Assembly: GCA_963710425.1 (NCBI GenBank)
Contig: CAVQAR010000020.1
Location: 105,941 to 169,940, forward strand
Direction: 5' to 3'
Origin: an uncultured delta proteobacterium
GTDB lineage: Bacteria > Desulfobacterota > Binatia > Binatales > Binataceae
Length of the DNA stretch: 64,000 nucleotides
Of this stretch, positions 36,840 through 64,000 are shown in pieces. The notes under the pieces are model-generated. The model was given only the letters and a program-made list of their open reading frames with translations. It searched no databases and was not told the origin of the DNA. A program made the position numbers and the translations under genes. Each line of letters opens with the position of its first letter. Positions within the stretch are counted from its first letter, which is position 1.

Positions 36840-37002
36840 GTCGAAGTATAGTCCTGTCCCACTCCCCTAACAATTCGACGAATTTTGGGCGATTTCGTTT
36901 CATTTCGCGAGAACGCTTCGCGTTGCGAGAATGCATTACTCATTCTGCGAGAGGGGGCGCGTCAAATCTAGGCTTTTCGATGGCACGCTCGGTGCAACCT
37001 AC

Positions 37003-37521
37003 ATGACGATGGTACTCAACAAGGAAAACGGGGATCAACTCAATCAAAAGCGCGATACGGCGGAGGTCGAAGCGGCGCTTGCGAGATTGACCAACGAAGA
37101 CTCAAAGCTGGGTGAACGTTTGATCAATGCGGCCGTCGCCGGTGCGGTGGTCGCGCGTCAGCCCGCCGATCCAATGTTGCGAGCCGAAGCGGCCGCAGCG
37201 TGGAACTCGATTAAGCCAGTCATCTCCGAACACCTTAGTTGCCAGAAAGATATCGTGCTCCCGTGGTTGGAGTCGCGAAAGAATTTTCCACCCGACCTAA
37301 TACTGCGCGCCCGCGAGCAGCGCGCCCGTCTGTGCGGCCTGGTGAAAACGATCGACGCATTTTCGTTCATCACGGGGACGGACGAGGAAGTCGCGAAGGC
37401 CGGAACCGCGCTGACCGCATTCGCGGTATGTCTCGACGATCTGATCGACTGTGAAGAACGCGACCTGTTCCCAATGATCCAGCGCAGCCTGTTCGGAGAA
37501 TCCAGCGGCGCCGGCGCATGA
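37003..37521 (+). CDS. hypothetical protein, possibly with a hemerythrin-like (HHE) domain
   Basis: Two H..E/EE..LFP-type segments (ISEHLSCQKDIVLPWLE; LIDCEERDLFPMIQ). Weak support. Confidence 0.3.
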   Translation: MTMVLNKENGDQLNQKRDTAEVEAALARLTNEDSKLGERLINAAVAGAVVARQPADPMLRAEAAAAWNSIKPVISEHLSCQKDIVLPWLESRKNFPPDLILRAREQRARLCGLVKTIDAFSFITGTDEEVAKAGTALTAFAVCLDDLIDCEERDLFPMIQRSLFGESSGAGA

Positions 37522-39450: not shown

Positions 39451-40107
39451 CTAGCGGAGGCGCTGGCCCGGTCGAACTTTGAAGCGGCGCGAGTCTCGTT
39501 GCGTCTTGAGATAAACCACGATGGCGACCGCCGCCACGAACATCACTTCCCAGAACAGCAGAGTGTTGAGGTGATCGAACCGGTCGTACCACACATTCGA
39601 TGAGGAGGCCTCCGGGGTGACCGATGTGCCCACGGCAGTCATAAAGTTGTCGCGCCAGCGGGACATCACCAGCAGGCCGTTCCACACCAAACCGGCTACC
39701 AGCACCACCACCCAGAACAGCACGCCGATTCGCTCCGGAATCCGGCGGCGCACGATGGTGTCAAGCGAACCTGGCTCGGGGCTGATGGTCGGCGCCAGGC
39801 GAGTCGCAATATTGCGAAGGTCCGGGACGGGATCTTCATTCCCGGACTCAGTTATCTCGGGAGGCTTGGGGAAAAGCGTCCTATGATCGATAGTCGCGCT
39901 GCTCGCCTCGCGAATCTGGCGCAGGATGAAAAGCATGTCCTGCTTGCAGGTCAAAGTTCCCAATAGCGCGCATCTGGACAGCGCTTCGAGCTCCTGAGGG
40001 GTAATGCTGAGCCGCGCGATCAGTTCATGATCGTTGCGAATCTGATCGAGGATCGCGCGCTCCGTCTGTGGAGTTAAATCCGGACTGCCCTTTATTTCGA
40101 CTTTCAT
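39451..40107 (-). CDS. hypothetical membrane protein, divergent from the hhyS2-kinase operon
   Basis: ORF with two TM helices in the C-terminal half. Confidence 0.4.
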   Translation of the reverse strand: MKVEIKGSPDLTPQTERAILDQIRNDHELIARLSITPQELEALSRCALLGTLTCKQDMLFILRQIREASSATIDHRTLFPKPPEITESGNEDPVPDLRNIATRLAPTISPEPGSLDTIVRRRIPERIGVLFWVVVLVAGLVWNGLLVMSRWRDNFMTAVGTSVTPEASSSNVWYDRFDHLNTLLFWEVMFVAAVAIVVYLKTQRDSRRFKVRPGQRLR

Positions 40108-40243
40108 AGAGACGGATTTTGACGCCGAACACGGCTCAAAGCAAGACTAAAGAAGACGTGAGCTATATAGGATGTTAAAACATAAGTTAGAGACGCGATA
40201 AGCCGCAATAGATTAAGCATATAGTAAGAATTACCTACATCGG

Positions 40244-40300
40244 GTAGCGAAGGTGTAGCGAAGGTCTACTTATGGTAGCGATTCTGTAGCGAACATCTAC
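40244..40300 (+). promoter_or_regulatory. four 11-bp direct repeats GTAGCGA(A/T)NNT (GTAGCGAAGGT x2, GTAGCGATTCT, GTAGCGAACAT) in an AT-rich promoter region
   Basis: Read directly. About 125 bp upstream of the hhyS2 start. The 11-bp period puts successive repeats on one helix face. Confidence 0.45.
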
Positions 40301-40424: not shown

Positions 40425-41489
40425 ATGCCGGAAAAATCCGCATCGCGATCCGGATTCCTGTCTGCTCCGGAGATCGAGGAAATCGACATCCTCTGGATCA
40501 CCGCCGGTCTCGGATGCGACGGCGACACGATCGCGATGACCGGCGCGACTCAGCCGAGTATCGAAGACCTGCTCTTGGGCGCGATGCCCGGTATTCCGAA
40601 GGTCACGCTCCACAATCCGTTCCTCGCCTATGAAAATGGCGACGAATTCCTCGCGCCGTTTCACCTGGCCAGAGCAGGACGCCTCGAGCGTCCTTTTATT
40701 CTCGTGGTCGAAGGATCAATTCCCGACGAGACCAACAAGGCCGAGGGCTACTGGGCTGCGATGGGAACCGACCGCGCGACCGGCCAGCCGATCACGACTT
40801 GCAAATGGATTGACGATCTCGCGCCCAAGGCGTGGGCCGTGATCGCGGCCGGCACCTGCGCGACCTACGGCGGAATCCATGCGATGCAGGGCAATCCTAC
40901 CGGTGCGATGGGCCTGCCCGATTACCTCGGATGGAATTGGAAGTCGGCGGCCGGCGTCCCGATAGTTTGCGTGCCCGGTTGTCCCGTGCAGCCCGACAAC
41001 TTCATGGACACGCTCTACTATCTGCTCTGCCAGGCCGCCGGTCATGCGCCCATGATTCCGCTGGATGAAGCTCTGCGCCCGCGATGGCTCTTCACGCAGA
41101 CCGTGCACGAAGGATGCGACCGCGGCGGATACTATGAGCAGGGCGACTTCACCCTGAGTTACGGCGAACCGGCGTGCATCGTGAAACTCGGATGCTGGGG
41201 CCCGGTGGTTCACTGCAACGTCGGCAAGCGCGGGTGGATGGGCGGCGTCGGCGGATGCCCCAACGTCGGCGGCATCTGCATTGGCTGCACGATGCCGGGG
41301 TTTCCCGACAAGTTCATGCCGTTCATGGACGAGCCGCCGGGCGCGAAGTTGTCGTCGTCCGCCGTTCTGATGTATGGACGCGCGGTTCGGGCGTTGCGGC
41401 GCTTCACGATGGAATCGCTCGACAAGGAACCCGAATGGCGCCATCGCCCAGCGCAACCGGAAAATTCGATGGCGCGCAAACCAAAATGA
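40425..41489 (+). CDS. [NiFe]-hydrogenase small-subunit paralog (Tat-less, group-1h-like) with no partnering large subunit
   Basis: Complete FeS-ligand set (GCDGD; CxPGCP; HEGCDRGGYYEQGDF; CIVKLGCWGPVVHCNV; GGCPNVGGICIGC). About 75-80% identical to the operonic small subunit at 56605-57654. No large-subunit gene is adjacent. Confidence 0.85.
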   Translation: MPEKSASRSGFLSAPEIEEIDILWITAGLGCDGDTIAMTGATQPSIEDLLLGAMPGIPKVTLHNPFLAYENGDEFLAPFHLARAGRLERPFILVVEGSIPDETNKAEGYWAAMGTDRATGQPITTCKWIDDLAPKAWAVIAAGTCATYGGIHAMQGNPTGAMGLPDYLGWNWKSAAGVPIVCVPGCPVQPDNFMDTLYYLLCQAAGHAPMIPLDEALRPRWLFTQTVHEGCDRGGYYEQGDFTLSYGEPACIVKLGCWGPVVHCNVGKRGWMGGVGGCPNVGGICIGCTMPGFPDKFMPFMDEPPGAKLSSSAVLMYGRAVRALRRFTMESLDKEPEWRHRPAQPENSMARKPK

Positions 41490-43057
41490 CGACAGCTCGC
41501 AAACTTGAGCCGGTGCAAGCGCCGGAGATCGAAGCGCTTCGCGAGCGGCATCTTGGTCAGACTCAGTCAGAGGCCCAGGCCGTCCTCGAAATGATGGCGC
41601 AAGTCTTCGACCTTGGCGTTTCGACGTTTCGCTCGTTCAATGCGCCGTCGCCAAAGGAGCCGCGGCGGCTGGCGCCGGTGACCGAGGGTCACGACGCGAT
41701 CGTAACCGTAGATGACTCCGCTATCATAACCTCCTTCAGCGACGCGGCCGAGAAGACCTTCGACTACCCGGCCCGCGCCGTCATCGGTAGGCCGCTCGCG
41801 ATTCTCTTCGACTCCGCCGGAATACCGGCGCCTTCAATCTCGGCGGGAAGTCGGAACGAGCGACTGCGTCTCGGCATCCCGCTCGACGCAGTGGGAAAGC
41901 GTCGCGAAGGAACTACGTTCGCGATGGAGATGAGCAGTACCGCGGTCGAGATTGGCGGCGAGCGGCGCTTCGTCATGGTGGTGCGCGATGTAACCGAGCG
42001 CGATCGAGCCGAATCGGAACGGCGCAAGGCCGAGGCCCGCTTTCGCTCGCTGGTCGAGCAGATTCCCGCCGTCACTTTCATGGGATCGCTCAACGAAGAC
42101 AAGAATGAGTTTTACGTCAGCCCGCAGATCGAAGCCTTGTTGGGCTTCTCGCAGGACGAATGGCTGAGCGATCCGTTTCTGTGGTTCAACCAGCTTCATC
42201 CCGACGATCGCAACTACTGTAACCAGGAATTTGCGCGCGGCTGTGTCACCGGCGGTCCGTTTCGCGCCGAGTTTCGCGCGCTGACCCGCGACGGCAAGGT
42301 GGTGTGGGTTCATGGCGAGGCTCGTGTCGTGCGCGACGAGGACGGACGCCCGATGTTTATCCAGGGCGTTGCCTACGACATCACCGAGTCGAAGCGCGCG
42401 GAGGAGACGGTTCGCGCCGGCGCCGAACAGCTCAAGGCCTCGCTCGAAGAAAAGGAGGTCCTGCTGAAAGAGATTCATCACCGGGTGAAGAACAATCTGC
42501 AGGTGATCTCGAGTCTTCTGAAATTGCAGGCGACCCACATCGAAGATCCCGCCGCGCTGGAAATGTTCAACGAGAGCCGTCATCGAATTCAGACGATGGC
42601 GCTGGTGCACGAGAAGCTTTACCAATCGGAAAGTTTCTCGCGGGTGGATTTCGGCGAATACGCGCGCAGTCTTTCGTCCCTGCTGGCCAGCACCTATCGC
42701 GACAAGGCTGCGCGCCTGGCGCTCAAAACCGAGATCGAGGAGGTATCGCTCGGCGTCGATATCGCGCTGCCGCTGGGACTCATCATCAACGAGCTGATTT
42801 CCAACTCGCTGAAGTACGCGTTCCCCAATGGCGGCGAAGGAGAAGTTCGGATCGGAATAAATCGCGTCGGCAACGACCAGCTACAGTTGATAGTCGCAGA
42901 TAACGGCATCGGCTTTCCCGCTAACGTCGATTTCCGCAAAACCGAAACCCTGGGGATGCAACTGGTGCTCGCGCTCTCTGGACAAATCGGCGGCAGCGTC
43001 GAACTTCGCTCCGACGCGGGAACTGAGTTCAGAATCCTGTTCCGCCCGCGAGCCTAG
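41486..43057 (+). CDS. sensor histidine kinase with two PAS domains and an HWE/HisKA_2-type kinase core, translationally coupled (ATGA) to the small-subunit paralog
   Basis: PAS segments, an H-box (EIHHRVKNNLQVISSLL), and a C-terminal HATPase with LIVADNGIGFP. The start ATG overlaps the upstream TGA. Confidence 0.8.
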   Translation: MTTARKLEPVQAPEIEALRERHLGQTQSEAQAVLEMMAQVFDLGVSTFRSFNAPSPKEPRRLAPVTEGHDAIVTVDDSAIITSFSDAAEKTFDYPARAVIGRPLAILFDSAGIPAPSISAGSRNERLRLGIPLDAVGKRREGTTFAMEMSSTAVEIGGERRFVMVVRDVTERDRAESERRKAEARFRSLVEQIPAVTFMGSLNEDKNEFYVSPQIEALLGFSQDEWLSDPFLWFNQLHPDDRNYCNQEFARGCVTGGPFRAEFRALTRDGKVVWVHGEARVVRDEDGRPMFIQGVAYDITESKRAEETVRAGAEQLKASLEEKEVLLKEIHHRVKNNLQVISSLLKLQATHIEDPAALEMFNESRHRIQTMALVHEKLYQSESFSRVDFGEYARSLSSLLASTYRDKAARLALKTEIEEVSLGVDIALPLGLIINELISNSLKYAFPNGGEGEVRIGINRVGNDQLQLIVADNGIGFPANVDFRKTETLGMQLVLALSGQIGGSVELRSDAGTEFRILFRPRA

Positions 43058-43887
43058 CGCTCCTTTTCAGCCACTGCGGCCTTTTTTTCGCGCAAGAACG
43101 AATACCATTCACTCATTCCGTCGCCCTTGAGCACCGAGACTTGAAGAATTTTGAGCGCCGGATTGATCTGGCGCGCATAGCCGACGCATCGATCGACATT
43201 GAACGGCACGTACGGAAGCAAGTCGATCTTGTTGAGAATCATCACGTCGGCCGCGCGAAACATATGCGGATACTTGAGCGGCTTGTCGTCGCCCTCGGTC
43301 ACCGATGCGATCACGATCCGCGCGCTCTCGCCGAGGTCGAACAGTGCCGGACAAACCAGATTCCCAACATTTTCGATCATGAGAACGGACCCGGGCGGCG
43401 GCTTCAGCCGCTTCAACGCATCGGCGATCATCGCGGCGTCAAGATGACATCCGCTGCCGGTGTTAATCTGAACCGCACGGCATCCGGTCGCGCCGATTCG
43501 CTCCGCGTCGAGCGTGGTTTCCTGATCTCCCTCGACCACGCAGATAGGAATTTCAGCGCCAAGCTCGCGAATCGTACGCTCGAGCAGCGACGTCTTGCCC
43601 GCACCCGGCGAGCTCATCAGGTTGAAGGCTAAAATTTCGCGACCTTCGAGCCAGCCTCGGTTATGCTCGGCGTGATGATTGTTTTTCGCGAGAATATCCT
43701 GCTCGAGCTGAAGCGTGCGCGAGTTCGGGTGTTCGTGCGCCTCATTATGATCGTGATGATGATGCTCATGTCTATCGTGCGAGTGATCATGATGATTTTC
43801 GTTATGAGAGTGGCTGCCGTCGTGGTTCGCTGAAACAACCGTCAACCGCGTTTCGGCGCCATTGGAGCATCCGCAGGTGGAACACAT
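43054..43887 (-). CDS. hypB: hydrogenase nickel-incorporation GTPase HypB with a His-rich N-terminus
   Basis: CxxC N-terminus, His-rich stretch (HDHSHDRHEHHHHDHNEAHEH), and a G-domain (SSPGAGKTSLL...ENVGNLVCP). Confidence 0.9.
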   Translation of the reverse strand: MCSTCGCSNGAETRLTVVSANHDGSHSHNENHHDHSHDRHEHHHHDHNEAHEHPNSRTLQLEQDILAKNNHHAEHNRGWLEGREILAFNLMSSPGAGKTSLLERTIRELGAEIPICVVEGDQETTLDAERIGATGCRAVQINTGSGCHLDAAMIADALKRLKPPPGSVLMIENVGNLVCPALFDLGESARIVIASVTEGDDKPLKYPHMFRAADVMILNKIDLLPYVPFNVDRCVGYARQINPALKILQVSVLKGDGMSEWYSFLREKKAAVAEKER

Positions 43888-43888
43888 T

Positions 43889-44224
43889 TCAGACTACCTC
43901 GACTGATCGTATTTTCAGTTCCTGTCCGCTGAGCATCGCCAGGTTCGCGCTTCCACACGGGCACAATGCGATCGTGTCGATCAGCTCGACCTGCTGCGCG
44001 CAATCACGGCATCGCGCCCGGCCCGGAGTTTCCTCGATTTCGAGCTGCGCGCCCTCCATCACCGTGCCCTCGGCACAAATATCGAAACAGGCGCGCACCG
44101 CATCAGGCACCACTCCAGAAAGTTTGCCGATCACAAGCACCACGCGCAGGACCTTCTCTCCGCGAACGTGGTCCGCGACGCTCTCGACGATGCTCTCTGT
44201 GATCGCCAGTTCGTGCATTCTCAA
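43889..44224 (-). CDS. hypA: hydrogenase nickel metallochaperone HypA
   Basis: MHELAITESIV N-terminus and a C-terminal CxxC...CPCG zinc site. Confidence 0.9.
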   Translation of the reverse strand: MRMHELAITESIVESVADHVRGEKVLRVVLVIGKLSGVVPDAVRACFDICAEGTVMEGAQLEIEETPGRARCRDCAQQVELIDTIALCPCGSANLAMLSGQELKIRSVEVV

Positions 44225-44230
44225 TCCCGG

Positions 44231-44620
44231 TCACTCTCGCATCGCCGAGCGCCCCTGCATCATCAGTCCGCCAACCATCGCGACGCCATTCGCGATCAGC
44301 GCCTGGATTTCGGGTGATTTCGAAAGCATCTGCCACGCGTCCATCAAAGGCCGATTGCCCGAGAAACTCATTATCGTCTCGGCCAGGTGTCCGTTGCCCG
44401 ACAGCATGCTGCCGAGCGTCTCGGCCACCGACAGCTTCCCTTCCTCGAAGGTGCTCTGGAAGATCGAGGTTCCGGTCGCGAGCATCCCCTTGAATTCTTC
44501 GGAGTTGACGATCGTCTCCCACGCCTTGCGCAGCTCGTCGAAACGCTCAGGACCCTCTTTCGCCCCCAGCACGTAACCGAGCATGAAACCCAAAAGCGCA
44601 CCCATTGAACTAGTCCTCCC
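44231..44620 (-). CDS. small hypothetical protein (about 125 aa) read in-frame as a C-terminal extension of the HypF ORF
   Basis: HypF homology ends near ...GQVAIAASE. The ORF then continues into MGALLGFMLGYVLGAKEGPERFDELRKAWE..., unrelated to HypF. Confidence 0.3.
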   Translation of the reverse strand, partial: GRTSSMGALLGFMLGYVLGAKEGPERFDELRKAWETIVNSEEFKGMLATGTSIFQSTFEEGKLSVAETLGSMLSGNGHLAETIMSFSGNRPLMDAWQMLSKSPEIQALIANGVAMVGGLMMQGRSAMRE

Positions 44621-46875
44621 TCGCGAGCGCCGAGTCTCAGACGCGGCTATCGCAACTTGTCCAAAACTGATTCCCGCGTCATTGGTCGGGACCTGCCGAT
44701 GCGTCAGCACGTTGAATCCCACGTCCTCCAGCAATCCAACCGTCCGTCGTAGCAATAACTGGTTTTGAAATACGCCGCCGCTGAGCGCGACCAGCGCCAA
44801 TCGGCGCGCGCGCCCGATCGCGATGCATGCGTTGAGGATCATCTGCGCTATCGAATTGTGAAAACGAGCGGCAACGACTGCAATAGAAGCGCCGGCCTGC
44901 AGATCGTTCACCACTGCGCGCACCAGGTCCTTGCCGCGAATTTCAAACGGCATCGCCGATGAAACCGGGACTTCGTAAGCGCCGTCTTCCTCGAGCGACG
45001 CCCGTTGCTCAAGTTCTATCGCCGCCTGCCCTTCATAGTTGATCGTGTCGCGCACCGAAAGGATCGCCGCGACCGCATCGAACAGCCGGCCCGCGCTGGA
45101 AGTGCGCGGCGAGTTCGTATTGCTCCGCATGAGCGCGGAAATCTGCCGCCATTGATCCGCATGCCGCGCGACAACTTCCAGCTGCTCCGGAATAGTTTCA
45201 CCGTAGGCGTGATGCAGGTACGACGCCGCCATTCGCCACGGCTGTTTGATAGCCGCAGTCCCGCCCGGCATCGCGACGGATTCAAGATGGCCAACGCGCT
45301 CAAACTTCGCCAGGTCCGCGATCAGAAATTCGCCGCCCCAGATTGTGTTGTCGAGCCCGAACCCAAGCCCATCGAATGCAACTCCAATAGACGGCCCGTG
45401 CACGCCATTGTCGGCGAGGCATGCGGCAATGTGCGCGTGATGATGCTGCACGGCGACCAACTCGACGCCCTTCAACTCGAGCGCATATTTCGTGGACAGG
45501 TACTCCGGATGCAGGTCATAAGCGACTACCTGGGGATCGATATCGAACAGCCGTCGAAAATGATCGATACCCTCGCGGAACGATCGCAGGGTTTCGAAAT
45601 TTTCCAGGTCGCCGATGTGATGTGATACGAAAGCATGCTGCCGTTTCGCGACGCAAAACGTGTTCTTGAGCTCGGCGCCACAAGCCAGGATCGGCCGCCG
45701 CAGTTTGAACGGAAGCTCAATAGGCTGCGGTGCGTACCCCCGCGAACGGCGCACCGGAACTTCCCGCCCTCGCGAAACCCGCACGACGCTATCGTCAGTG
45801 CGAATATGAATCTGCCGATCGTGAATCAGGAAATAATCTGCGATGGGCGAAAGCCGCTTCGCCGCTTCATCGTCCGTGTACGCAATCGGTTCGTCAGAAA
45901 CGTTGCCGCTGGTGAACACGATCGGCGCGTTGACCGATTCGCATAAGAGATGATGCAGCGGCGTGTACGGCAACATCACACCGATGAATCGATTCGACGG
46001 CGCCACCGAATGCGCCAGATTGGCGTCGAATTTGCGCTCGAGCAGGACAACGGGACGGCGCGGACTAGTCAGCGCACGCTCTTCCACCTCATCAATCGCC
46101 GCCAGTTCGCGTGCCGCCGTCAGATTCGGCGCCATCACGGCAAACGGCTTGTCCTCACGATGCTTGCGCGATCGCAGCACTTCACCGCATCCTCATCCGA
46201 CGCGAGCGCCGCAAGATGATAGCCGCCGAGGCCTTTCACCGCGAGAATTTTTCCAGCTCTCAACAGCTCGGCAGCTTTGCGAATCGGATCGCCAGCCTGT
46301 GCGATTCCATTTCGATCGATCAAACGCACAGCAGGGCCGCATGCCGGGCAGCAAACCGGCTCCGCGTGGAATCGCCGATCGGACGGATCGTGATATTCGC
46401 GCGCGCAGTCTGCGCACATCGGAAACTCGGCCATCGTCGTCAGCCCGCGGTCGTATGGCACGCCGCGAACGACCGTGAATCGCGGACCGCAATTGGTGCA
46501 ATTGGTGAACGGGTAGCGATAGCGCCGATCAAGCGGATCGAAAATCTCGCGGATGCAGTCGTCGCAAGTCGCGATGTCGGGAGAAATCAAAACCTGCCGC
46601 TCGCCATCGACCTGGCTCGCCAGTATCGCAAATTCCGATCGTTTCGCGACCGGAATCAGCTCGGCCGTCACATTCAGTATCGATGCAAGTGGCGGCGCAT
46701 CGGTCACCAGCCGCGAGCGGAACTCCGCGACGTTCGCGACGCTTCCCTCGACCTCGATCGCGACGCCGTGCAAGTCGTTGACGATCGAACCGCCGAGCCC
46801 CAACTTTTGCGCGAGGCCGAAAACGAACGGCCGAAACCCTACCCCCTGCACGATTCCATCAATCCTGATACGCAT
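44600..46875 (-). CDS. hypF: carbamoyltransferase HypF; frameshift in the 46135-46180 overlap
   Basis: ORF 46135..46938 has the acylphosphatase domain, two Zn-finger CxxC pairs and the start of the YrdC domain. ORF 44231..46180 carries YrdC and the Kae1-like domain. Confidence 0.85.
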
Positions 46876-46946
46876 CGCCACGCGATTCCGAGGTTCGTGA
46901 GGTAACGATTGGGAGACAGTGTGTTCAGCCGGTCGCATTCCCGTCT

Positions 46947-53910: not shown

Positions 53911-54773
53911 TTCATGAGCGGAGCAGCGATCGCGACTCTCACTCCGTCCTGATCTTCGAGCAAGGGCACTGGCTCAAGATGCAATCCGCGGCTCTCGGTC
54001 GATCGGCCGGCCAGACGCGGGTCATAATTCTTGTTGCACGATGGACAGACCACCAGGCTGTGAGTCACGTTGCCGCCGCCCATCGCGGAACCGCATGCCG
54101 GGCACGCGTCGCGATACGCGTAGAGTTGCCCTTCGACCCGGCACAGCACGATTCGCGATCCCATCGCTTCGGTCGAAGTGAGAAGGCTGGCGGGAAATCC
54201 GTTTTGGTCGCCAATCGATACCCATGTCGGCTCGATCTCGGCTGCTCGCTCGCGCGGAGATTTGGATTCGGTGACGCCTTCGACCTCGATCGTCGAAGCC
54301 TCGGGCGCCGCCTCGCGAATCGCAGTTTCCACCGCGAGCTTTACAGTCAACAGCGACGACGGGCATCCGTCGCAGCTACCTTTCATCCGCAGTCGCACCA
54401 GGCCGGTATCCAGACTGAGATCGACGATCTCGACGTCGCCGCCGTGCGATCCGAGATACGGCCGCACGCGCTCGAGCGCCTCGCGCACACGGGTTTCGAA
54501 GTCCTTGGGATGCAACCCATGCAGGATCAGCAGGCTCGAGACCAAATCGTCGGCAGCGAGTTGCGCGCGCAAACGCTCGCCGGCGCTGCCGTCCGCGGCC
54601 GCGATCTCGTCGATGCGCTTGAGACCTTCGCCGTAGAGATGCACCACGGAGCGGACGATCTCCTCGACTCGTTCCCACACCGGCGGACTCGCCATCGAGC
54701 GAACCTCCTCGAGCAGCGGCTCGATTCGTTCGCTGAGTTCGCGCAACTTCCCCTGATCTCCCCGACGCGCCAT
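53907..54773 (-). CDS. NifU-like (Fe-S scaffold C-terminal domain) protein with a C-terminal Cys-rich (Rieske/zinc-ribbon-like) region, hydrogenase-associated
   Basis: GSHGGDVEIVDLSLDTGLVRLRMKGSCDGCPSSLLT NifU C-terminal motif, then CPACG...CPSC. Start chosen at MARRGD, overlapping the hhyL stop. Confidence 0.6.
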   Translation of the reverse strand: MARRGDQGKLRELSERIEPLLEEVRSMASPPVWERVEEIVRSVVHLYGEGLKRIDEIAAADGSAGERLRAQLAADDLVSSLLILHGLHPKDFETRVREALERVRPYLGSHGGDVEIVDLSLDTGLVRLRMKGSCDGCPSSLLTVKLAVETAIREAAPEASTIEVEGVTESKSPRERAAEIEPTWVSIGDQNGFPASLLTSTEAMGSRIVLCRVEGQLYAYRDACPACGSAMGGGNVTHSLVVCPSCNKNYDPRLAGRSTESRGLHLEPVPLLEDQDGVRVAIAAPLMN

Positions 54774-56542
54774 CAGTCGCCCACTGTGTTCATCATCGTC
54801 GGCGAGTGGATTTTCTTCAGCACCTTCCCCTTGCCGACGTACATGTGCACGCCGCACGGCAGGCACGGGTCGAAGCTGCGGACGGTGCGCATAATGTCTA
54901 TGCCTTTGAACTTGTCGGGACCGTTCTCCTCGAAAATCGGCGTGTTCTGCACGGCGTCTTCATACGGTCCCGGCGTTCCGTAGACGTCGCGCGGATTCGC
55001 GTTCCACGGCGTTGGCGGATACGGATGATAGTTCGCGATTTTGCCGCCGCGAATCACCATGTGATGCGACAGCACGCCGCGCACCGCTTCAGTGAAGCCG
55101 CAGCCGATGCCTTCGTCAGGCACTTTGAATTGCTCCCAGGTCTTGGTGTGACCCGCGCGCACTTCGGCCAGCGCCTTCTCGGTGAAATGGAGCGCGCACG
55201 CGGCCGCGTAGGCCTGGAAGTAAGTTCGCGCGCGGTCGCGCTCGATCGTGTTCGACCACTTCGGCATCTTCCACTCGAAATCGACGGGCCCCTTGGTCGC
55301 GCTCTTGGGCAGGTGGATCTGGACGCTGTTGCCGGTCGCCTTGACGTAGTCGTTATTCACCAGTCCCGACAGCGCAGTCGACCACAAACGCGCGATTGGC
55401 CCGCCGCCGGTGTCGAGCGCCAGGTGATCCTTGCCGTCGAACCATCGTGGCGACATGACCCAGCTATACTTGCCGTCGAAATCGCGCTTCTGAGGCTTGG
55501 GCACGGTGTGTTGATTCCACGGATGCCGGCGATCAACTGGATTGCCGAGCGGGTCTTTGGTTACGAACATCTCCTGGTCTTCCCAATCGTCGTAGAAGGA
55601 ATGACCGAGCAGAATCCGAATCCCGAGATTTATTTTGACGAGATCGTTAGTGACCAGTTTGCCGTCAACCACGATGCCCGGGGTGACGAACATCTTGCGT
55701 CCCCACTCGGTCATGTCCCGGTAGTTGAAATTGCAATATTCGGGATCCTGGAACGAGCCCCAGCAGTTGAGCAGGATTCGCCGCTTGCCGACTTCTTCGT
55801 AGCCGGGCAGGGCGGTGTAAAAGAAATTGAACAGGTCGTCGTGCATCGGAACCGCGCGCTTGAGGAACTCGACGTAGCGCATCAGGCGCGTCAGGTAGTC
55901 GGTGAAAAGCTGGACGGTCGCTACTGTGCCGACGCCACCAGGATAGAGCGTCGAAGGATGCACGTGGCGTCCTTCCATCAGGCAGAACATCTCGCGCGTG
56001 TAGCGGCTGACCTGCAATGCTTCGCGGTAGAATTCGCCCTCGAGCGGATTGACCGCCTTCATAATGTCGCCAATGGTGCGATAGCCGTGCGCGGCGGCGC
56101 CCGGCGCTTCGGCCTTGACCGCTTTCTCCCACAGGCCGGGATTGGTCTCGCGCACCATCCGCTCGCAGAAATCCACTGCGACCAGGTTTTCTTGAAAAAT
56201 GTTGTGATCGAACATGTACTCGGCGGCTTCGCCGAGATTCACAATCCATTCGCCGAGATGCGGCGGCTTCACGCCGTACGCCATGTTCTGCGTGTAGCAT
56301 GAACAGGTCGCGTGATTGTCGCCGCAGATTCCGCAGATGCGACTCGTGATGAAATGGGCGTCGCGCGGGTCCTTGCCTTTCATGAAGATGCTGTAGCCGC
56401 GGAAGATCGACGACGTGCTATGGCACTCGGCGACCTTTTTCTTGCCGAAGTCGATCTTCGTGTAGATTCCGAGGCTGCCGACGATTCGTGTGATCGGATC
56501 CCAATTCATCTCGACCAGGCCGTCGGTTGTCTTCGTCGCCAT
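54773..56542 (-). CDS. hhyL: [NiFe]-hydrogenase large subunit (likely group 1h/5, Hhy-type)
   Basis: N-terminal RICGICGDNH and C-terminal DPCLPCGVH nickel-binding motifs, plus a C-terminal extension for protease processing. Confidence 0.9.
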   Translation of the reverse strand: MATKTTDGLVEMNWDPITRIVGSLGIYTKIDFGKKKVAECHSTSSIFRGYSIFMKGKDPRDAHFITSRICGICGDNHATCSCYTQNMAYGVKPPHLGEWIVNLGEAAEYMFDHNIFQENLVAVDFCERMVRETNPGLWEKAVKAEAPGAAAHGYRTIGDIMKAVNPLEGEFYREALQVSRYTREMFCLMEGRHVHPSTLYPGGVGTVATVQLFTDYLTRLMRYVEFLKRAVPMHDDLFNFFYTALPGYEEVGKRRILLNCWGSFQDPEYCNFNYRDMTEWGRKMFVTPGIVVDGKLVTNDLVKINLGIRILLGHSFYDDWEDQEMFVTKDPLGNPVDRRHPWNQHTVPKPQKRDFDGKYSWVMSPRWFDGKDHLALDTGGGPIARLWSTALSGLVNNDYVKATGNSVQIHLPKSATKGPVDFEWKMPKWSNTIERDRARTYFQAYAAACALHFTEKALAEVRAGHTKTWEQFKVPDEGIGCGFTEAVRGVLSHHMVIRGGKIANYHPYPPTPWNANPRDVYGTPGPYEDAVQNTPIFEENGPDKFKGIDIMRTVRSFDPCLPCGVHMYVGKGKVLKKIHSPTMMNTVGD

Positions 56543-56604: not shown

Positions 56605-57654
56605 CTACCATCGCGGCCGGTAGCCGGTCTTCAGTTCTTTGCCGCGCACGCGCCACTTGGGTTCATCCTCCAGCGTGCTCAGCGTGTACGATCGCAGCGT
56701 TCGAACGACTGACCCAAGGACGTTGGCCATGCGTGTGGAAACTTTGGCGCCCGGAGGTTCATCCATGAACGGCATGAACTTGTCGGGGAAGCCGGGCATC
56801 GTGCATCCGATACAAATCCCGCCGACGTTGGGGCATCCGCCGACGCCGCCCATCCATCCGCGCTTGGGCACATTGCATTTCACCACCGGGCCCCAGCAGC
56901 CGAGCTTGACGATGCATTTTGGCGATCCGTATTCGTCGGCGAAGTCGCCACCTTCGTAGTAGCCGGCGCGGTCGCATCCTTCGTGAACGGTGTTGCCGAA
57001 GAGCCATTGCGGCCGATGCTCTTCGTCGAGCGGAATCATCGGCGCCTGGCCGGTCGCCTGGTAGAGCAGGTACAGGATGGTCTCGGAAAGATTGTCGGGT
57101 TGAATCGGACATCCGGGCACGCAGACGATCGGAATCCCGGCGCCTGATTTCCAATCCCAGCCGAGGTAGTCGAGCACACCCATCGCGCCGGTCGGATTGC
57201 CCTGCATCGCATGGATACCGCCGTAGGTCGCGCAGGTCCCGACCGCCAGTACCAGCAACGCCTTCGGCGCCAGCCGGTCGATCCATTCGCTGGTCGTCAT
57301 TGGCTGTCCAGTCGCCGGATTGTTGCCAAACCCGCACCAGTAGCCTTCTTTCTTGATCGCTTCGTTGGGGATCGATCCTTCGATCACGAGTACGAACGGG
57401 ATCCAACTCGCCGCGCTCGCCCTTGAAGAACCATTCGATGAAGTCGTCGGTCTTATGACCGACCGGCCCGGTCTCGTACGCGATCAGCGGCCAATGAACG
57501 TCAACTTTGGGCAAGCCGGGCAGGGTGCCGAGGACGATATCCTCGATGCTGGGCTGCATCGCAGCGGTAAGCGCAACCGAATCGCCGTCACACGATAGTC
57601 CCGCGTTGATCCAGAGGATATGAACCACGGGGTCATTTCCGTTGGTCGGCATCG
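56605..57654 (-). CDS. hhyS: [NiFe]-hydrogenase small subunit, Tat-less (group-1h-like); frameshift at about 57387-57400
   Basis: ORF 56759..57679 gives the N-terminus from the ATG at 57652 (AAGGAGG ribosome-binding site; HILWINAGLSCDGD). ORF 56605..57387 continues (VIEGSIPNE...) with the full FeS-ligand set. Confidence 0.9.
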
Positions 57655-57796: not shown

Positions 57797-57813
57797 CGCA
57801 TCAAATGTGCCAT
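57797..57813 (-). promoter_or_regulatory. sigma54 (-24/-12) promoter TGGCAC-ATTTGA-TGC with consensus GG/GC spacing, about 135 nt upstream of hhyS
   Basis: Minus-strand sequence aTGGCACatttgaTGCg read directly. GG-N10-GC spacing is exact. Confidence 0.6.
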
Positions 57814-57961: not shown

Positions 57962-58077
57962 GTCGCGAATGCGCGACAGCTGTCGCATTGTGTCGCGCGA
58001 TGAACAGGGCCGGATCAAAATAGCGGCGAGATTCACGATCAGAGCGAGCGATAGCTGTAGCGTGATGTCGCGCGACA
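57962..58077. promoter_or_regulatory. cluster of GTCGCG/CGCGAC palindromes (GTCGCGaatgCGCGAC; TGTCGCattgtGTCGCGCGA; TGTCGCGCGACA); candidate enhancer sites for the adjacent sigma54 activator
   Basis: Perfect inverted repeats read directly, 150-270 bp upstream of the sigma54 promoter. Confidence 0.45.
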
Positions 58078-58085
58078 GATGGCTG

Positions 58086-59048
58086 TTAGCGGGCCAGTCG
58101 CCGATAAACCGTCGAGCGATGGATTCCGAGCCGGCGTGCAGTTTCGGACACGTTGTTGTTGGACGCCTCGAGCACCGCTTTTATGCCGTCGGTGCGATGT
58201 CCGTTGTGATGCCCATTGCTGTGTCCCTTGTGCAGAGCGTCGGCCTTCGATCCTTCGATGCTGCGATCGATCCATAGCTCGGCGGGCAAGTCGCCGGCTG
58301 TAATCCGATCCTCGGCCGAGGCGAGAATCGCCCGCAACATTATATTGCGCAGCCCGCGCGCGTTGCCCGGCCACGCATACGGGCAGGTCCTGAGCGCCGT
58401 CCAGACTTCGTCCTCGACTTCGCCGAGGAAGTGGAGTTCCTCACGCAGGCATTTTTCCGCGATCGGCCGCAGGTCGTCGCGTCGTTCACGCAGCGGCGGA
58501 ATTTGAATCACGAGACAGTTGAGCCGATAGAGCAGATCCGATCGCACGCGCTGTTCCGATTCGAGCTGCTCTACCGTAATGTTCGACGCCGCAATCACAT
58601 TCACGTCGGCATGAACCGGCCGCGTACCGCCGACGCGGACGAAATCTCCAGTCTCCAGGAACCGCAGCAGGACGCTCTGCGCAGTCGGCGGCAGATCCTG
58701 CAACTCGTCAAGAAAAAGGGTTCCGTTGGTGGCCGCGTCGATCAATCCACCGCGCGCCTGGCGGTCGGCGCCAGTGAACGATCCCGCCTCATAGCCGCAC
58801 ATTTCTGCAATCGCCAAATCGCCGCAGAGCGTGCCGCAATTTATCGCAACAAAAGGACCTTCGCGGCGCTGGCTGGCATTGTGAATGGAATGCGCGAAAA
58901 GCTCCTTGCCAGTTCCCGACTCGCCCACGATCAACGTCTGAAAATTGCTCTCGGCCGCTCGATGAGCGAGCCGAATAGCGCCTTGAATTGAGTCGCTGGT
59001 ACCCAGGATGTCGTCGAAGCTGAAATGAGCGGGCCAAGCATGCATCAT
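58086..59048 (-). CDS. sigma54-dependent transcriptional activator (AAA+ domain plus Fis-type HTH) with no N-terminal receiver or sensor domain
   Basis: Walker A (GESGTGKE), GSFTGA (GAFTGA-type) sigma54-contact motif, and a C-terminal HTH (ETARRLGIHRSTVYRRL). The AAA+ domain starts about 20 residues from the N-terminus. Confidence 0.85.
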   Translation of the reverse strand: MMHAWPAHFSFDDILGTSDSIQGAIRLAHRAAESNFQTLIVGESGTGKELFAHSIHNASQRREGPFVAINCGTLCGDLAIAEMCGYEAGSFTGADRQARGGLIDAATNGTLFLDELQDLPPTAQSVLLRFLETGDFVRVGGTRPVHADVNVIAASNITVEQLESEQRVRSDLLYRLNCLVIQIPPLRERRDDLRPIAEKCLREELHFLGEVEDEVWTALRTCPYAWPGNARGLRNIMLRAILASAEDRITAGDLPAELWIDRSIEGSKADALHKGHSNGHHNGHRTDGIKAVLEASNNNVSETARRLGIHRSTVYRRLAR

Positions 59049-59125
59049 TGTTAGCCTCTCGCCGCCGAAAGAAGCCCCCAAGATCGGCCCCGAGTATGCT
59101 ACCTTGATCCAAAGACGTCAACGCA

Positions 59126-59872
59126 ATGAGCACCCAGCTGGCGCGAGTACTGATAGTCGAAGATGAGAGCATCACCGCGCTCCACATCAAGACTATCCTC
59201 GACGCCAAGGGCTACGCTGTTCCCGCGATCGTCGGGAGTGGCGACGAAGCTATCGAGATGGCCGGCGAGCTGAACCCCGATCTCGTTCTGATGGACATCA
59301 GGCTTCGCGGCAACGTCGATGGTATCGAGGCGGCTGGGGCTATCCGCAGCAGGTTCAACGTGCCGGTGGTCTATTTGACCGCGTACGCCGATACCGAAAC
59401 TTCGGAACGCGCTCGTCTGACCGAGCCCTATGGCTACTTGCTCAAGCCTTTCGACGAACGCGAGCTGATGATCGTGGTCGAGATGGCGCTGTATCGGCAC
59501 AAAATGGAACGCAAGCTGAAGGAGAGCGAGCGCTGGCTCACTGCAACCCTTCGCAGCATCGGAGATTCGGTTATCGCAACCGACGCCGAATGGAAAATCC
59601 GATTCATGAATCCGCGCGCCGAGAGTCTCACCGGATGGGCCGCCGACCTCGCGATCGGACGCGAGTTGGCCGAGGTGGTTCGCGTCTCACTCACCGCGAA
59701 TCCGCGGCCGCTGTCGCCGAGCCTCGCATTGAACGGCGGCGGCATGGCAGAAGGGATCCTCACCACTCGCGACGGCAGCGAGATCGCAGTCGAGGAAAAC
59801 AGCACCACCATTCGCGACGAGCGCGGCCGCGTGATGGGCACCGTCATCGCAATTCGAAAAAAGCGCACTTAA
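59126..59872 (+). CDS. response regulator with REC plus PAS domains and no DNA-binding output
   Basis: REC motifs (VLIVEDE, phospho-acceptor D in LVLMDIRL, KPF) followed by a PAS-like region. Confidence 0.75.
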   Translation: MSTQLARVLIVEDESITALHIKTILDAKGYAVPAIVGSGDEAIEMAGELNPDLVLMDIRLRGNVDGIEAAGAIRSRFNVPVVYLTAYADTETSERARLTEPYGYLLKPFDERELMIVVEMALYRHKMERKLKESERWLTATLRSIGDSVIATDAEWKIRFMNPRAESLTGWAADLAIGRELAEVVRVSLTANPRPLSPSLALNGGGMAEGILTTRDGSEIAVEENSTTIRDERGRVMGTVIAIRKKRT

Positions 59873-60355: not shown

Positions 60356-63300
60356 TCAGCCGAGTACGATTTTCACCTGATGCGTGACGCCGTCGTCGGC
60401 GAGTTCGATTTGCGCTGGCCGTTGCGCGAGTAGTTTGCCGTCCAACTCGACGCTGCTCACTCCGCGACTGACGTTGTGCGGGTTGGTGACCGCGATTTCA
60501 TAGCGCGTCGATCCGTAGCGATAGACAATCTCGAAGCCCGGCCATTTTCGCGGGATGCATGGATCGATCACCAGCGTTTTGCCGCGGAGACGAAAGCCCA
60601 AAATCCATTCGAGGCCGGCACGATACATCCAACCCGCCGATCCCGTGTACCAAGTCCATCCGCCGCGACCGACGTGCGGCGGCATCGAGTAAACGTCGGC
60701 GCAGACGACGTAAGGCTCGACTTTGTAGCGATGGATTCCCGCGCGTGTGTTCGCATGATCGATCGGGTTCAGCATCGAGAAGAGATCGCCGGCCTTGTCG
60801 CCGTCACCGAGCATCGCAAATGCGATCACGGACCACATCGCGCCATGCGTGTACTGTCCGCCGTTCTCCCTGATGCCGGGTGGGTAGCCCTTGATATAGC
60901 CCGGGTCGAGCGGCGTGTGATCGAATGGCGGTGTGAACAGCAGCACGAGGCCGTCGTCGCGCTTGACCAGGTATTCATCGACCGAGGCCATCGCTGTGGC
61001 CGCGCGATCCGGGCTCGCCGCGCCGGAGATTACGCTCCACGACTGCGCTATCGAATCGATTCTGCATTCGAGATTGCCCGCTGAGCCGAGCGGCGAGCCG
61101 TCATCGAAATAACCGCGCCGATACCAGTTGCCGTCCCATCCATCGCGCTCGAGCGACGCCGCAAGCGCTGTCGAGTGTGCTCGCCACGTCGAAGCGCGTG
61201 CGTTGTCGTTGCGAATTTCCGCCAATGGCGCGAACAGTTGCAGCGTCGTGTAGAGGAACCATCCGAGCCAGACGCTCTCTCCCTTGCCCGCCTCGCCGAC
61301 GCGATTCATGCCATCGTTCCAGTCGCCCGACCCGAACAGCGGGATCCCATGGACGCCGACCGCGAGGCTTTGCGTCGAGACCGCGCGCGCAATGCTCGAA
61401 TAGCGTGCCGCTCTGCTCGGAAACCGTCGGCTGAAAAAACGATTCAACTTCGCCCGGATGCAGTTCCGGTCCGTCAAGGAATGGAATCTTTTCGTCGAGG
61501 ATGCCGGCGTCGCCCGTCGCCTCTATATAATGAGCGACCGCGTACGCCAGCCAGACTCGATCGTCGGCGATACGCGTGCGGACTCCTTGGCCCGCTGGCG
61601 GCAGCCACCAATGTTGCACGTCGCCGGCGACGAACTGGCGCGACGCCGCGCGAAGCAGGTGCTCGCGCGCAATCGAAGGCCGCGCCACCGTCAACGCCAT
61701 CACGTCCTGAAGCTGATCGCGAAAGCCGTACGCGCCGCTGGCCTGGTAAAATGCCGACCGCGCCAACACTCGGCACGCCAGCGTCTGATACAGCAGCCAG
61801 CGGTTGAGCATGATGTCCATCGAGCGGTCGGGCGTCTTGACCTGAACCGCGCCCAGCAAGTCGTCCCAGTATTGCTTGACCGTGGTCAGCGCCGAATCGA
61901 GATCGGCGGTGCGATATTTTTTATGGCGGCTATCGCATCGGCCCTGCTCGCCGCCTCGCCGAGAAGGAAACTGACTTCGGTCTCGGCGTTGGGCCGGAGA
62001 GAGATCGTCGTCTGCAGCGCGGCGCAGGGATCCATCGCGGCGCCGGATTTTGGGACGAGTCGATTGCCGGCGGCAAGTGCCGCGGGATTGTCGAGCGTGC
62101 CGTTACGGCCGAGAAAGCCGGTCCGGTCCGCGGTTGACGACGTTTGCTTGCCGCGCAAATCCGCGAAAGCGGTGCGGTTCCCGTATTCGACGCTGAAAGA
62201 ATTGCGCGCCAGTATCGCACGGGTCTCCGGCTCGATCTCCGTGACGATGTACGGTGCCGACGCGCCGCGCGACGTGCCCAGCACCCATTCCACGTATGCG
62301 GTTACCGACATTCGCCGCGCACGCGGCGAGAGATTGCGGATTTTCAGCGTCGAAATCTTGACCGAGTCGTCCACCGGCACGTATTGCGTCAGCTCGAGCG
62401 CGACGCCATGCGAGGTGTGCTCGAACACAGCTGTAGCCGTGCCCGTGACGCACGACGTAAGGCGCCGAATCCTCGCGGATCGGAAGCGCGGTCGGTCCCC
62501 ACAGCTCGCCGGTGTCGAGGTCCTGAACGTAGATCACCTCGCCGGGCCGGTCGCTGACCGCATCGTTCGACCATTGCGTAATCTGATGCTGCTGGCTGTT
62601 GATCGCCCACGTGTAGCCGCTGCCCTCGACCGAAACCTGGAAGCCGAACGATTGATTCGCGATCACGTTGATCCACGGCGCCGGCGTCCACTGCCCCTCG
62701 CCAAGGATCGTCACGTACTCGCGGCCGTCCTCGGCAAATCCGCCGAGACCGTTGAAAAATTCGAGCTCACGCCTCGGCGTCGAAGACGCGACTCGCTGCA
62801 TCGCGCGAGTCCGCCGCAGTGGCGGACTTGTCGCCGGTGCGAACATCTCCAACCGTTTGACTTGATCAGACAACCTGCCGCGGCGGCTCAGCAACACCGC
62901 CCGCGCCACCGTCTGCAACACGCTTCGAAGCTCGGCCGAAACCAGGTCGGCGCGCAGCACGAACACATTTCCGGGCGCACTCGCTCCCTCAGATCGTGTC
63001 GGAATAGTCCGGACCATGCCCTCGAGTGCGCCCTGCAATTCCTGATGGTACGACGGCGGTCGTTCGTTAACGATCACTAGGTCGACTCCCAGCCACTTCA
63101 TCCGCCAATATTCATGCGCGCGCACCAACTCGCGCACGATCTCCACATCCTCGATTTCGTCGATGCGAACCAACACGATCGGCAGATCGCCTGAAATGCC
63201 GGCCGGCCACAGCTTCGACTGTCCACCCTCGCCGCGCCGCAGCAGGTCGGACGAAGGCCGCAGCGTCGGATCGGAATACAGCACGCGATTGGCGATACGT

Positions 63301-64000
63301 TGAAAAAGATGCGCCTCGTCCGCATCGACGCGCAGATGATGCAATTGCACCTGCGCCTGCGTCCACGCGAGCGTCACCGCGCGCTCGAACGCGCTCGGGT
63401 CGCGATGCTTATCGACGAGGTCGAGTGCGTCGGCCCGCGTCGGCGCGATGATCGTCCAGAACGCGACGCGCGCGGTCGCCCCCGCCGGGATTCGCAGCCG
63501 CCGGCGAACGCTGAAGATCGGATCGAGCACTGTGCCGACGGTGTCCGACAGCGGACGTCCATCGATCACCGAAACAGCGTCGCAGACATCGCGGCCGCGC
63601 CCGAGAAATCGCGCGCGATCGGTCTCGAACTGAATCTCGCCCACCGACTCGCCCTCGGCCACCGCCAGATGCGCCGCCCAGACCGGCACTTCGTTCGGCG
63701 ACGCGTAGCCGCCGCGTCGCCAGTATCGCGCCAACCTCGGCGTCGAACTCCGTCTGCACGAACATCTTGGAGAATGCCGGATGCGCCGTGTCCGACGCCT
63801 CGGTCGCGAGCACGATTTCCGCGTACGAAGTCAGCTCGACTTCGCGGACGCGGTTGCCGAGATTCGAAATCGAGACGCGCCGCACTTCGGCGTTGTCCTC
63901 GGGCGACACCGCGACCTCGAGCGTCGTCGTCATGGTGCCGTCGCGCCGCACGATCACCGCGCGGTCCTCTGAGAACTCGACCTGGTAGCTGTCCGCCTCG
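60356..64000 (-). CDS. C-terminal part of a giant GH94-family (cellobiose/cellodextrin-phosphorylase-like, NdvB-type) multi-module protein; several frameshifts; continues beyond the window end
   Basis: ORFs 60356..61477, 61101..61859, 61886..62428, 62103..63734 and 63409..63957 each carry GH94 segments ([11 protein letters not shown] in the (alpha/alpha)6 barrel; repeated N-terminal beta-sandwich modules) and are co-oriented. Confidence 0.6.

Follow-up and report, generated by a model that had tools for sequence, protein, structure and literature searches.

A small-subunit gene that overlaps a histidine kinase gene

We analysed a 64-kb stretch of DNA from an uncultured Binataceae bacterium (contig CAVQAR010000020.1, positions 105,941 to 169,940; hereafter the window), which carries, besides the catalytic hhySL genes of a group 1h (Hhy) [NiFe]-hydrogenase, a paralog of the hydrogenase small subunit, here called SSU2, encoded directly upstream of a sensor histidine kinase. 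The SSU2 gene (40425–41489, plus strand) encodes 354 residues, one fewer than the 355 counted in an initial annotation made from the sequence alone, and matches the Pfam domains Oxidored_q6 and NiFe_hyd_SSU_C with 75 and 79 bits. Its TGA stop codon (41487–41489) overlaps the ATG of the kinase gene at 41486, forming an ATGA that can be read directly and that the annotation had pointed out; the letters there are ccaaaATGAcgaca. On reading, the N-terminus of SSU2, MPEKSASRSGFLSAPEIEE, is free of a twin-arginine/RRxF motif, and group 1h small subunits normally carry no twin-arginine translocation (Tat) signal. The nearest solved relative is HofK (PDB 5AA5_A; E=4e-171, residues 14–341), followed by a second-best match at 8e-42, with the remaining solved small subunits at 1e-41 or worse. 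All twelve iron-sulfur (FeS) ligand positions align with those of HofK, including the Cys-x2-Asp proximal motif 'GCDGD', which bears out the earlier description of a complete, Tat-less paralog with every FeS ligand.

In its domains, its similarity to HofK, its ligands for three clusters and its missing Tat signal, SSU2 matches a group 1h small subunit, except that it is not encoded together with a cognate large subunit. The gene directly 3' of SSU2 is that of the kinase, no large-subunit gene adjoins it, as the annotation had also noted, and the sole large-subunit gene within the window is hhyL, 13.3 kb away. Against the operonic HhyS with its frameshift repaired, SSU2 shows 68% identity (222/328), lower than the 75–80% previously claimed; over a trimmed alignment, SSU2 is 72% identical to HofK, as against 69% for HhyS.

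The kinase gene (41486–43057, plus strand) encodes a cytoplasmic protein of 523 residues with the domains PAS_9 (70–171), PAS_3 (209–296), HisKA_2 (329–404) and HATPase_c (45 bits). Two PAS domains had been predicted correctly, whereas the core, previously described as HWE, scores 101 bits for HisKA_2 (cut-off 22.3) and 28 bits for HWE_HK (cut-off 22.8), and we therefore assign it to HisKA_2, the sister family of HWE. The phosphoacceptor box EIHHRVKNNLQ is present, as expected of either family. The nearest NCBIfam model for the core is PhyK, whose cut-off of 750 bits lies so far above the observed 128 that the kinase is not PhyK itself. Ahead of the PAS domains, the kinase has an N-terminal amphipathic helix, SEAQAVLEMMAQVF, which is the window's version of the motif AExxLxxLAxxF(P); this helix and the PAS_3 signature are common to all sensor architectures compared, and persist even where a HisKA_3 core takes the place of HisKA_2, as in the relative L170. 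Cys253, considered as a clue to a PAS cofactor, is invariant in Binatia-like kinases and variable across the wider family, and was dropped. The ratio of nonsynonymous to synonymous substitution rates (dN/dS) of the kinase is about 0.10.

Divergently upstream of SSU2 lies an open reading frame (ORF) of 218 residues (39451–40107, minus strand) without a Pfam match and with a hydrophobic C-terminal half; the same region in L001, a 98%-identical contig, is read as two short ORFs owing to indels. The AT-rich interval 40150–40300 upstream of SSU2 contains four GTAGCGA direct repeats (at 40244, 40255, 40275 and 40286; spacing 11/20/11). These were rejected as a conserved operator, being found only in the window and its twin L001 and absent upstream of SSU2 in L090, L003, L087 and L138; the repeat stretch could represent an operator specific to this lineage or what is left of an insertion.

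Recurrent gene order and natural fusions in relatives

The pairing of SSU2 with the kinase recurs among relatives, including many soil bacteria, whose loci we designate by L numbers. Kinase orthologs with 55–99% identity directly follow either SSU2 (L001, L003/L004, L087) or SSU2 and a second large subunit, LSU2 (L005, L006, L007, L088). The order SSU2–kinase is also found in L090–L093, and the longer order SSU2–LSU2–kinase–REC/PAS, with a receiver (REC) and PAS protein at its end, in L005, L006, L007, L088 and L096–L098; in L089, an ortholog with 48% identity is the last gene of an hhy–hyp operon. Across the Binatia-like group, the spacing between SSU2 and kinase genes ranges from −4 to +16 nucleotides (nt).

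A metagenome scan with the PAS_3 region alone returned 80 loci, 68 of them informative after removal of 12 truncated at the end of their contig. The gene that immediately precedes the PAS_3 sensor encodes a small subunit, with no large subunit between, at 24 loci, a large subunit at 8, and HypB or HypA at 31, and nothing lies within 1.6 kb at the other 5, such that the sensor directly follows a group 1h hydrogenase or hyp gene in 63/68 informative loci. A scan of genome contigs with the full kinase alignment keyed on the generic HHRVKNNL box, and among the matches listed it gave one true ortholog (L007). The neighbourhood comparison proposed in the initial annotation thus finds SSU2–kinase adjacency in dozens of loci, tied to group 1h clusters; the annotation would have given up its idea had kinase homologues never stood beside a hydrogenase small subunit, and the 24 loci with a small subunit directly upstream show that they do.

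In two cases, the genes are joined into one. The SSU2::kinase fusions P0166 (761 residues, from a long-read ENA assembly) and P0361 (763 residues, from a JGI assembly) are 90% identical and keep their frame across a diverged linker with small indels, a pattern that an error would hardly produce in two independent assemblies. A library search with the fusion protein, its results swamped by multi-PAS proteins, revealed no further fusions; P0405 and P0472, considered as further fusions, were rejected, both being dCache-HAMP kinases. Together, these comparisons support the view that SSU2 and the kinase form a conserved functional unit tied to group 1h clusters, and the fusions, the overlapping or at most 16-nt spacing, and the conserved helix and PAS_3 region argue for physical coupling between the two proteins.

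Where LSU2 is present, it retains both Ni-Fe cysteine motifs and the C-terminal extension, is 70–72% identical to HhyL, i.e. of the 1h type, and has widespread ordinary 1h large subunits as its own relatives. None of the best 120 LSU2-like proteins lies on a contig with an SSU2 that lacks a large-subunit gene, which is weak evidence for the absence of a second large subunit, since the list saturates at 74–78% identity. The relatives can be arranged as a reduction series, from SSU2–LSU2–kinase–REC/PAS through SSU2–kinase to the SSU2::kinase fusion. LSU2 of L007 (8163–9808; a short-read metagenome-assembled genome of Candidatus Binataceae) has two compensating frameshifts about 700 nt apart in an otherwise conserved frame, and could be a gene caught during loss or an assembly problem.

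The partners downstream vary too. On its 8.4-Mb contig, acidobacterial-type L170 has, in order, SSU2, a PAS_3/HisKA_3 kinase, a REC-GerE protein, hhyS, hhyL, and nifU onwards. In L088 (4846–7121) and L170 (9111–11758), SSU2 stands with a PAS-HisKA_3 kinase and a REC-GerE (NarL-type) regulator, which replace or supplement the route through HisKA_2, REC-PAS and sigma54. From these arrangements, one hydrogenase-derived input appears to be wired to different outputs across relatives.

A distinct small-subunit clade without relaxed constraint

A neighbour-joining tree of 54 full-length small subunits is split, with 97% bootstrap support, into two clades. Clade I consists of HofK together with the operonic HhyS from those genomes in which SSU2 is present as well. 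Clade II contains every kinase-adjacent small subunit, 23 of them without a large-subunit gene and 8 with a second large-subunit gene after them, as well as the sole small subunits of operons ending with a related PAS protein; SSU2 of the window belongs to clade II, the same clade as SSU2 of L170. Small subunits without a large-subunit gene are found in at least two subclades of the tree, and the Binatia-like one (the window, L001, L003, L087, L090, L093, L138, L002 and L100) has as its sister the SSU2s of L005, L006, L007, L088 and L098. Because these sister SSU2s still have LSU2, the state seen in the window points to secondary loss of the large-subunit gene. Thus SSU2 does lack a large-subunit gene here, as expected of the orphan subunit described initially, but this is a derived condition, with L005, L006, L007 and L088 having the full SSU2–LSU2–kinase–REC/PAS arrangement.

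The dN/dS of SSU2 is 0.05–0.08, and the Cys, His and Asp ligand positions common to HofK and HhyS are all kept in SSU2 and in 23/23 small subunits without a large-subunit gene. These features mark SSU2 as an intact small subunit with three FeS clusters that evolves under strong purifying selection. Among 29 small subunits with a large-subunit partner, 133 sites are at least 96% conserved, and 129 of these 133 are kept at 90% or more in the 23 partnerless ones, the four exceptions being conservative A/G, S/T and V/I changes. The overall conservation of the partnerless small subunits equals that of catalytic clade I (mean pairwise identity 0.777); in the same genome pairs, SSU2 diverges 1.6–2.3 times faster than HhyS, with or without LSU2. 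We take the lack of relaxation at sites conserved in subunits bound to a large subunit as the chief reason to think that SSU2 has kept a large-subunit partner, presumably HhyL.

An extra cysteine at SSU2 residue 126 (about 40800–40802; TTC[EK]W) is found in 87% of 39 clade II small subunits, and is absent from clade I, which has Ser, Asn or Thr there, and from HofK. The only other clade-discriminating positions are V314 and S331, in the C-terminal helix, and the three residues may help to determine kinase coupling. When the window is compared with L003, synonymous divergence is about 1.9 for SSU2 and the kinase, versus about 0.6 for hhyS and hhyL; recent exchange of hhySL or strong codon constraint are possible reasons for the low latter value.

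The catalytic cluster and a candidate output

The catalytic cluster lies on the minus strand, in the order hypB, hypA, hypF, hypC, hypE, hypD, a HycI-type protease gene, DUF6084, DUF5947, the gene of a NifU-Rieske protein, hhyL and hhyS. The genes hypB (43054–43887), hypA (43889–44224) and hypF (44231–46938), with Pfam cobW, HypA and HypF domains, the last over two ORFs, are convergent with the kinase gene. At the other end, hhyL (54773–56542) encodes 589 residues with the Pfam domain NiFeSe_Hases and the motifs RICGICGDNH and DPCLPCGVH, and its product is 97% identical to HhyL of L003; the operonic hhyS, of clade I, is found frameshifted at 56605–57652.

Next to hhyS lie two regulatory genes. 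The gene at 58086–59081 (minus strand) encodes a sigma54 enhancer-binding protein of 331 residues with the domains Sigma54_activat (25–192; 183 bits), AAA_lid_14 and HTH_8, in which GESGTGKE and GSFTGA are readable. Divergent from it, the gene at 59126–59872 (plus strand) encodes REC-PAS, a single-receiver protein of 248 residues with the Pfam domains Response_reg and PAS. The catalytic motifs of the kinase, of REC-PAS and of the activator are all retained. Since the activator is made up of AAA+ and HTH domains only, without a receiver or other sensory domain, it must be controlled by a separate protein, presumably REC-PAS.

In the window, these two genes adjoin hhyS rather than the kinase gene. 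In relatives, REC-PAS orthologs with 57–67% identity are found immediately after the kinase (L002, L005, L006, L007, L088, L095, L097, L099, L100, L148), that of L002 being fused to a further kinase; activator orthologs with 62–74% identity stand beside the kinase or REC-PAS in L005, L006, L087, L099 and L100, and 4 kb off in L002. The kinase core is most similar to PhyK and the receiver of REC-PAS to PhyR, both under the family cut-offs, which is consistent with a cognate pair, and REC-PAS is the probable phospho-acceptor of the kinase. The likely output of the module is REC-PAS together with the sigma54 activator next to hhySL.

A candidate sigma54-type −24/−12 promoter, TGGCACATTTGATGC, is located at 57798–57812 (minus strand), begins some 160 nt upstream of the start codon of hhyS, and is one of two matches to TGGCAC-N6-TGC in 64 kb, where 0.48 would be expected. 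Counterparts of the form GG-N10-GC are present upstream of hhyS in L003, L002 and L006. Between 57897 and 58077 lies a cluster of TGTCGC/GCGACA half-sites, candidate binding sites for the activator; no other perfect TGTCGCGCGACA palindrome occurs in the window than the one in this cluster (58066–58077). The arrangement 'TGTCGCGCGACA-N4-5-TGCGACA' also occurs upstream of hhyS in L002, L003, L005 and L006, and is absent in L007 and L088, on whose retrieved loci no sigma54 activator was detected. At the level of sequence, probable signalling from the kinase to REC-PAS and the sigma54 activator, as the initial annotation had suggested, is supported by synteny in relatives (L005, L006, L099, L100; partly L002 and L087) and by the candidate promoter with its conserved upstream palindromes. 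The other TGGCAC-N6-TGC match (36981–36995, plus strand) lies at the start of a 196-residue ORF without a Pfam match (36931–37521).

Sequence quality of the window

Several genes of the window are interrupted by frameshifts that had been missed in the initial annotation. One surplus C in a run of C near 57397–57400 breaks the operonic hhyS (a +1 frameshift, judged against five relatives), and the C-terminal part of hhyS has a dN/dS of 0.035 against L003. The hypF gene is split at about 46180, with a further frameshift site at about 44639, and the GH94 glycosyl-hydrolase gene (60356–63957) is also fragmented; the reading frame of the HypF C-terminus runs on into the following small ORF. Relative to the 98%-identical contig L001, the window shows 22 indels in 21.6 kb, mostly of 1 nt and many within genes; in L001, hypF is intact (755 residues) and hypB is broken. 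This rate of about one indel per kb is typical of uncorrected long-read assembly, and assemblies of relatives in ENA with 'contig_N'-style names show similar gene fragmentation. From the L001 indel pattern and this similar fragmentation, the frameshifts in hhyS, hypF and the GH94 gene are most likely sequencing or assembly indels rather than signs of pseudogenes, and pseudogene calls in this window require read-level confirmation. No second record of the exact sequence of the window's HhyL was found.

The interval 40425–43057, in contrast, is free of indels relative to L001, where the SSU2 ORF is intact and of equal length. Moreover, the SSU2–kinase pair recurs in many independent short-read and long-read assemblies (MEGAHIT, SPAdes-type and long-read) from many samples, and the worry about mis-assembly voiced in the annotation is not borne out.

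Relation to known hydrogenase sensors

A module of this kind was reportedly noted in Acidobacteria by Greening et al. in PNAS in 2015, at least as Giguere et al. cite that paper. Giguere et al. 2021 (ISME J, SI-2, PMC8027828) describe, for two Acidobacteria, a further hhyS copy about 3,600 bp upstream, as also seen in Pyrinomonas methylaliphatogenes, and this hhyS homolog was 13-fold induced in stationary phase in Acidobacteriaceae KBS 83 and unexpressed in Edaphobacter aggregans (PMC8027828). The pairing is thus not the unprecedented 'different solution' that the annotation had taken it for, although the published account of the acidobacterial module comprises two sentences and a quantitative PCR result, with no mechanism, phylogeny or distribution (PMC8027828).

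Like the acidobacterial 'hhyS homolog plus two-component system', in which an extra 1h small subunit 65–70% identical to the genome's own hhyS product stands beside a sensor kinase, near hhySL and without a large subunit, the window has a paralog with 68% identity, an adjacent kinase gene and hhySL in the same stretch, and acidobacterial-type L170 has the N-terminal helix, PAS_3 sensor and clade II small subunit in common with it. The wiring is a variant. The window's kinase has a HisKA_2 (PhyK-like) core in place of HisKA_3, and REC-PAS with a receiver-less sigma54 activator in place of the DNA-binding REC-GerE (NarL-type) regulator; its module lies 13–15 kb from hhySL instead of about 3.6 kb upstream, its stop and start codons overlap, and its lineage is Binatia-like.

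Group 2b includes HoxBC-HoxJ-HoxA of Cupriavidus necator (Ralstonia eutropha) and HupUV-HupT-HupR of Rhodobacter capsulatus. The window's module resembles these in coupling a Tat-less small subunit to a cytoplasmic PAS histidine kinase and in ending on a sigma54-dependent activator of uptake-hydrogenase genes. It differs in that SSU2 groups with 1h sequences and has no dedicated large subunit of the HoxC/HupV type here, so that it is not a member of group 2b, and in that the kinase is of the HisKA_2 type, the activator lacks a receiver domain, REC-PAS stands between as a protein of its own, and the target is a high-affinity, O2-insensitive scavenging enzyme. The adjacency in more than 30 loci and the two natural fusions provide genetic evidence that SSU2 may dock on its kinase as in group 2b. 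The regulatory hydrogenases of group 2b and their kinases are summarised in PMC13289019.

With HofK/HofG of Ralstonia eutropha (PDB 5AA5), SSU2 shares the length class, the Cys3Asp proximal motif and the remaining ligands; HofK, unlike SSU2, is a catalytic subunit of clade I encoded beside its large subunit. An activator that has no sensory domains and is regulated in trans recalls PspF/PspA, HrpRS/HrpV and NifL-NifA, by analogy only, as we claim no homology of REC-PAS to PspA, HrpV or NifL.

HydDB lists as sensory only groups 2b, 2c and [FeFe] group C (PMC5037454); a genome survey of the Binatota reports group 1h hydrogenases and no sensor (PMC8262859); and, for synthesis of the high-affinity hydrogenase of M. 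smegmatis, signals and regulatory proteins still await identification (PMC13289019). A module of this kind had been noticed already and never analysed. What is new here is the Binatia-like variant with its HisKA_2 kinase, REC-PAS and sigma54 activator; the split between clades I and II and the constraint test; the reduction series, including forms that contain LSU2 and forms that are fused; and the diagnostic helix and PAS_3 sensor signature with its breadth.

Discussion

We propose that SSU2 and the kinase together serve as the input of a two-component pathway governing the group 1h hydrogenase, and that they feed REC-PAS and the sigma54 activator, and we put the probability of this reading at about 0.7. 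SSU2 would bind the kinase through the helix/PAS_3 region, and the redox state of its FeS relay would gate kinase autophosphorylation, as HoxB does for HoxJ. H2 cleaved at a large subunit would be the most likely electron source; SSU2, which lacks a large subunit of its own, keeps 97% of the residues conserved in subunits bound to one, so it would probably pair with a fraction of HhyL, and this catalytic large subunit would be time-shared. The kinase would then phosphorylate REC-PAS, which would modulate the receiver-less sigma54 activator in trans, and the activator would drive the sigma54 promoter of hhySL. Taken as a claim of its own, the borrowing of HhyL by SSU2 is one we hold tentatively, with the odds slightly against it. 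A broader proposal, more tentative still, is that HhyL is shared in time between HhyS, which would pass electrons to the respiratory chain, and SSU2, which would link a sub-population of HhyL to the histidine kinase, such that a sensor without a private large subunit measures the flux through the cell's high-affinity hydrogenase; that the relatives, from full second hydrogenase to fusion, preserve intermediate stages of this evolution; and that helix and PAS_3 sensors constitute a widespread new class of hydrogenase-coupled regulator of atmospheric-H2 oxidation.

Several observations weigh against this picture. The conservation of SSU2 where the large-subunit gene is missing could be due to constraints from folding, clusters and kinase binding rather than from binding a large subunit. 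LSU2 and the clade II enzymes, with all Ni-Fe cysteines and the C-terminal extension, resemble ordinary catalytic 1h hydrogenases, and so the SSU2–LSU2 ancestor need not have been a dedicated sensor. One clade II small subunit, P0008 (L172, 8001–9032), stands alone on a 2.1-Mb contig near ffh, rpsP, trmD and rplS, with no kinase, large-subunit or hyp gene within 8 kb. An AlphaFold2 model of a natural fusion reached a mean predicted local distance difference test score (pLDDT) of 66.8 and a predicted template modelling score of 0.49, with the FeS domain and the linker/helix below 50 in pLDDT, values too low to inform on docking. A second large-subunit gene may lie elsewhere in the genome, beyond the 64-kb window. 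The genes of REC-PAS and the activator lie 16 kb from the kinase gene in the window, and their pairing with the kinase accordingly rests on orthology with relatives. Analogy is the basis on which we propose binding, the signal (H2, redox or O2) and the direction of control, and H2 is not a self-evident signal, since atmospheric H2 is constant.

SSU2 could instead be a stand-alone FeS redox sensor that no longer binds any large subunit. Cellular carriers would reduce or oxidise its three clusters, or O2 would damage them, and this state would be passed to the kinase, so as to report redox or energy status, for example starvation, and not H2. The known expression of high-affinity hydrogenases tracks carbon starvation, not H2 (PMC13289019; PMC8027828), and a large-subunit gene is missing from the window operon and from the 24 metagenome loci, appears to have been lost in at least two SSU2 subclades, and has no counterpart in the fusion proteins. 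Loss of the large-subunit interface should, however, relax dozens of surface positions, and in the 23 partnerless small subunits only 4/133 vary, all conservatively, while these subunits as a whole are as conserved as catalytic HhyS. In addition, we know of no hydrogenase small subunit that is stable or functional without a large subunit, and we consider the stand-alone sensor unlikely.

If SSU2 were an alternative catalytic small subunit, forming an HhyL isoenzyme with another electron exit route or potential, the kinase would only regulate it or be co-regulated with it, without physical coupling. SSU2 is as similar to the biochemically characterised HofK as HhyS is, clade II includes the sole small subunits of complete hydrogenase operons, and the relatives of LSU2 are ordinary 1h subunits; but the in-frame fusions from two independent assemblies, the spacing of the genes, which overlap at stop and start or lie no more than 16 nt apart, and the retention of the helix and PAS_3 region wherever a clade II subunit is present, even with a different kinase core (HisKA_2 or HisKA_3), make this very improbable. 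The error-prone assembly of the window, with its frameshifts in hhyS, hypF and the GH94 gene, might raise the suspicion that SSU2 is itself a functionless, decaying duplicate or an assembly artefact. Its ORF is intact and of the same length in the 98%-identical contig, no indel falls within 40425–43057, dN/dS is low, all ligands are conserved, and the arrangement is found in MEGAHIT, SPAdes-type and long-read assemblies; the indel map, synteny, site retention and dN/dS effectively refute both the pseudogene and the artefact.

Group 1h hydrogenases account for much of the soil sink for atmospheric H2. The locus and its relatives suggest a concrete, testable regulator with defined partners, a REC-PAS protein and a sigma54 activator here and a NarL-type regulator in Acidobacteria, and with candidate sites for promoter and operator; some carriers can be grown in culture (KBS 83, E. 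aggregans, P. methylaliphatogenes), which makes the hypothesis genetically testable. If SSU2 works with HhyL, a catalytic small subunit and a sensory one would, for the first time, share a [NiFe] large subunit; if it works alone, a hydrogenase small subunit would, for the first time, have a function independent of a large subunit. If our broader proposal is true, the helix and PAS_3 sensors would make up a de facto new 'histidine-kinase-linked group 1h' functional class in soil bacteria.

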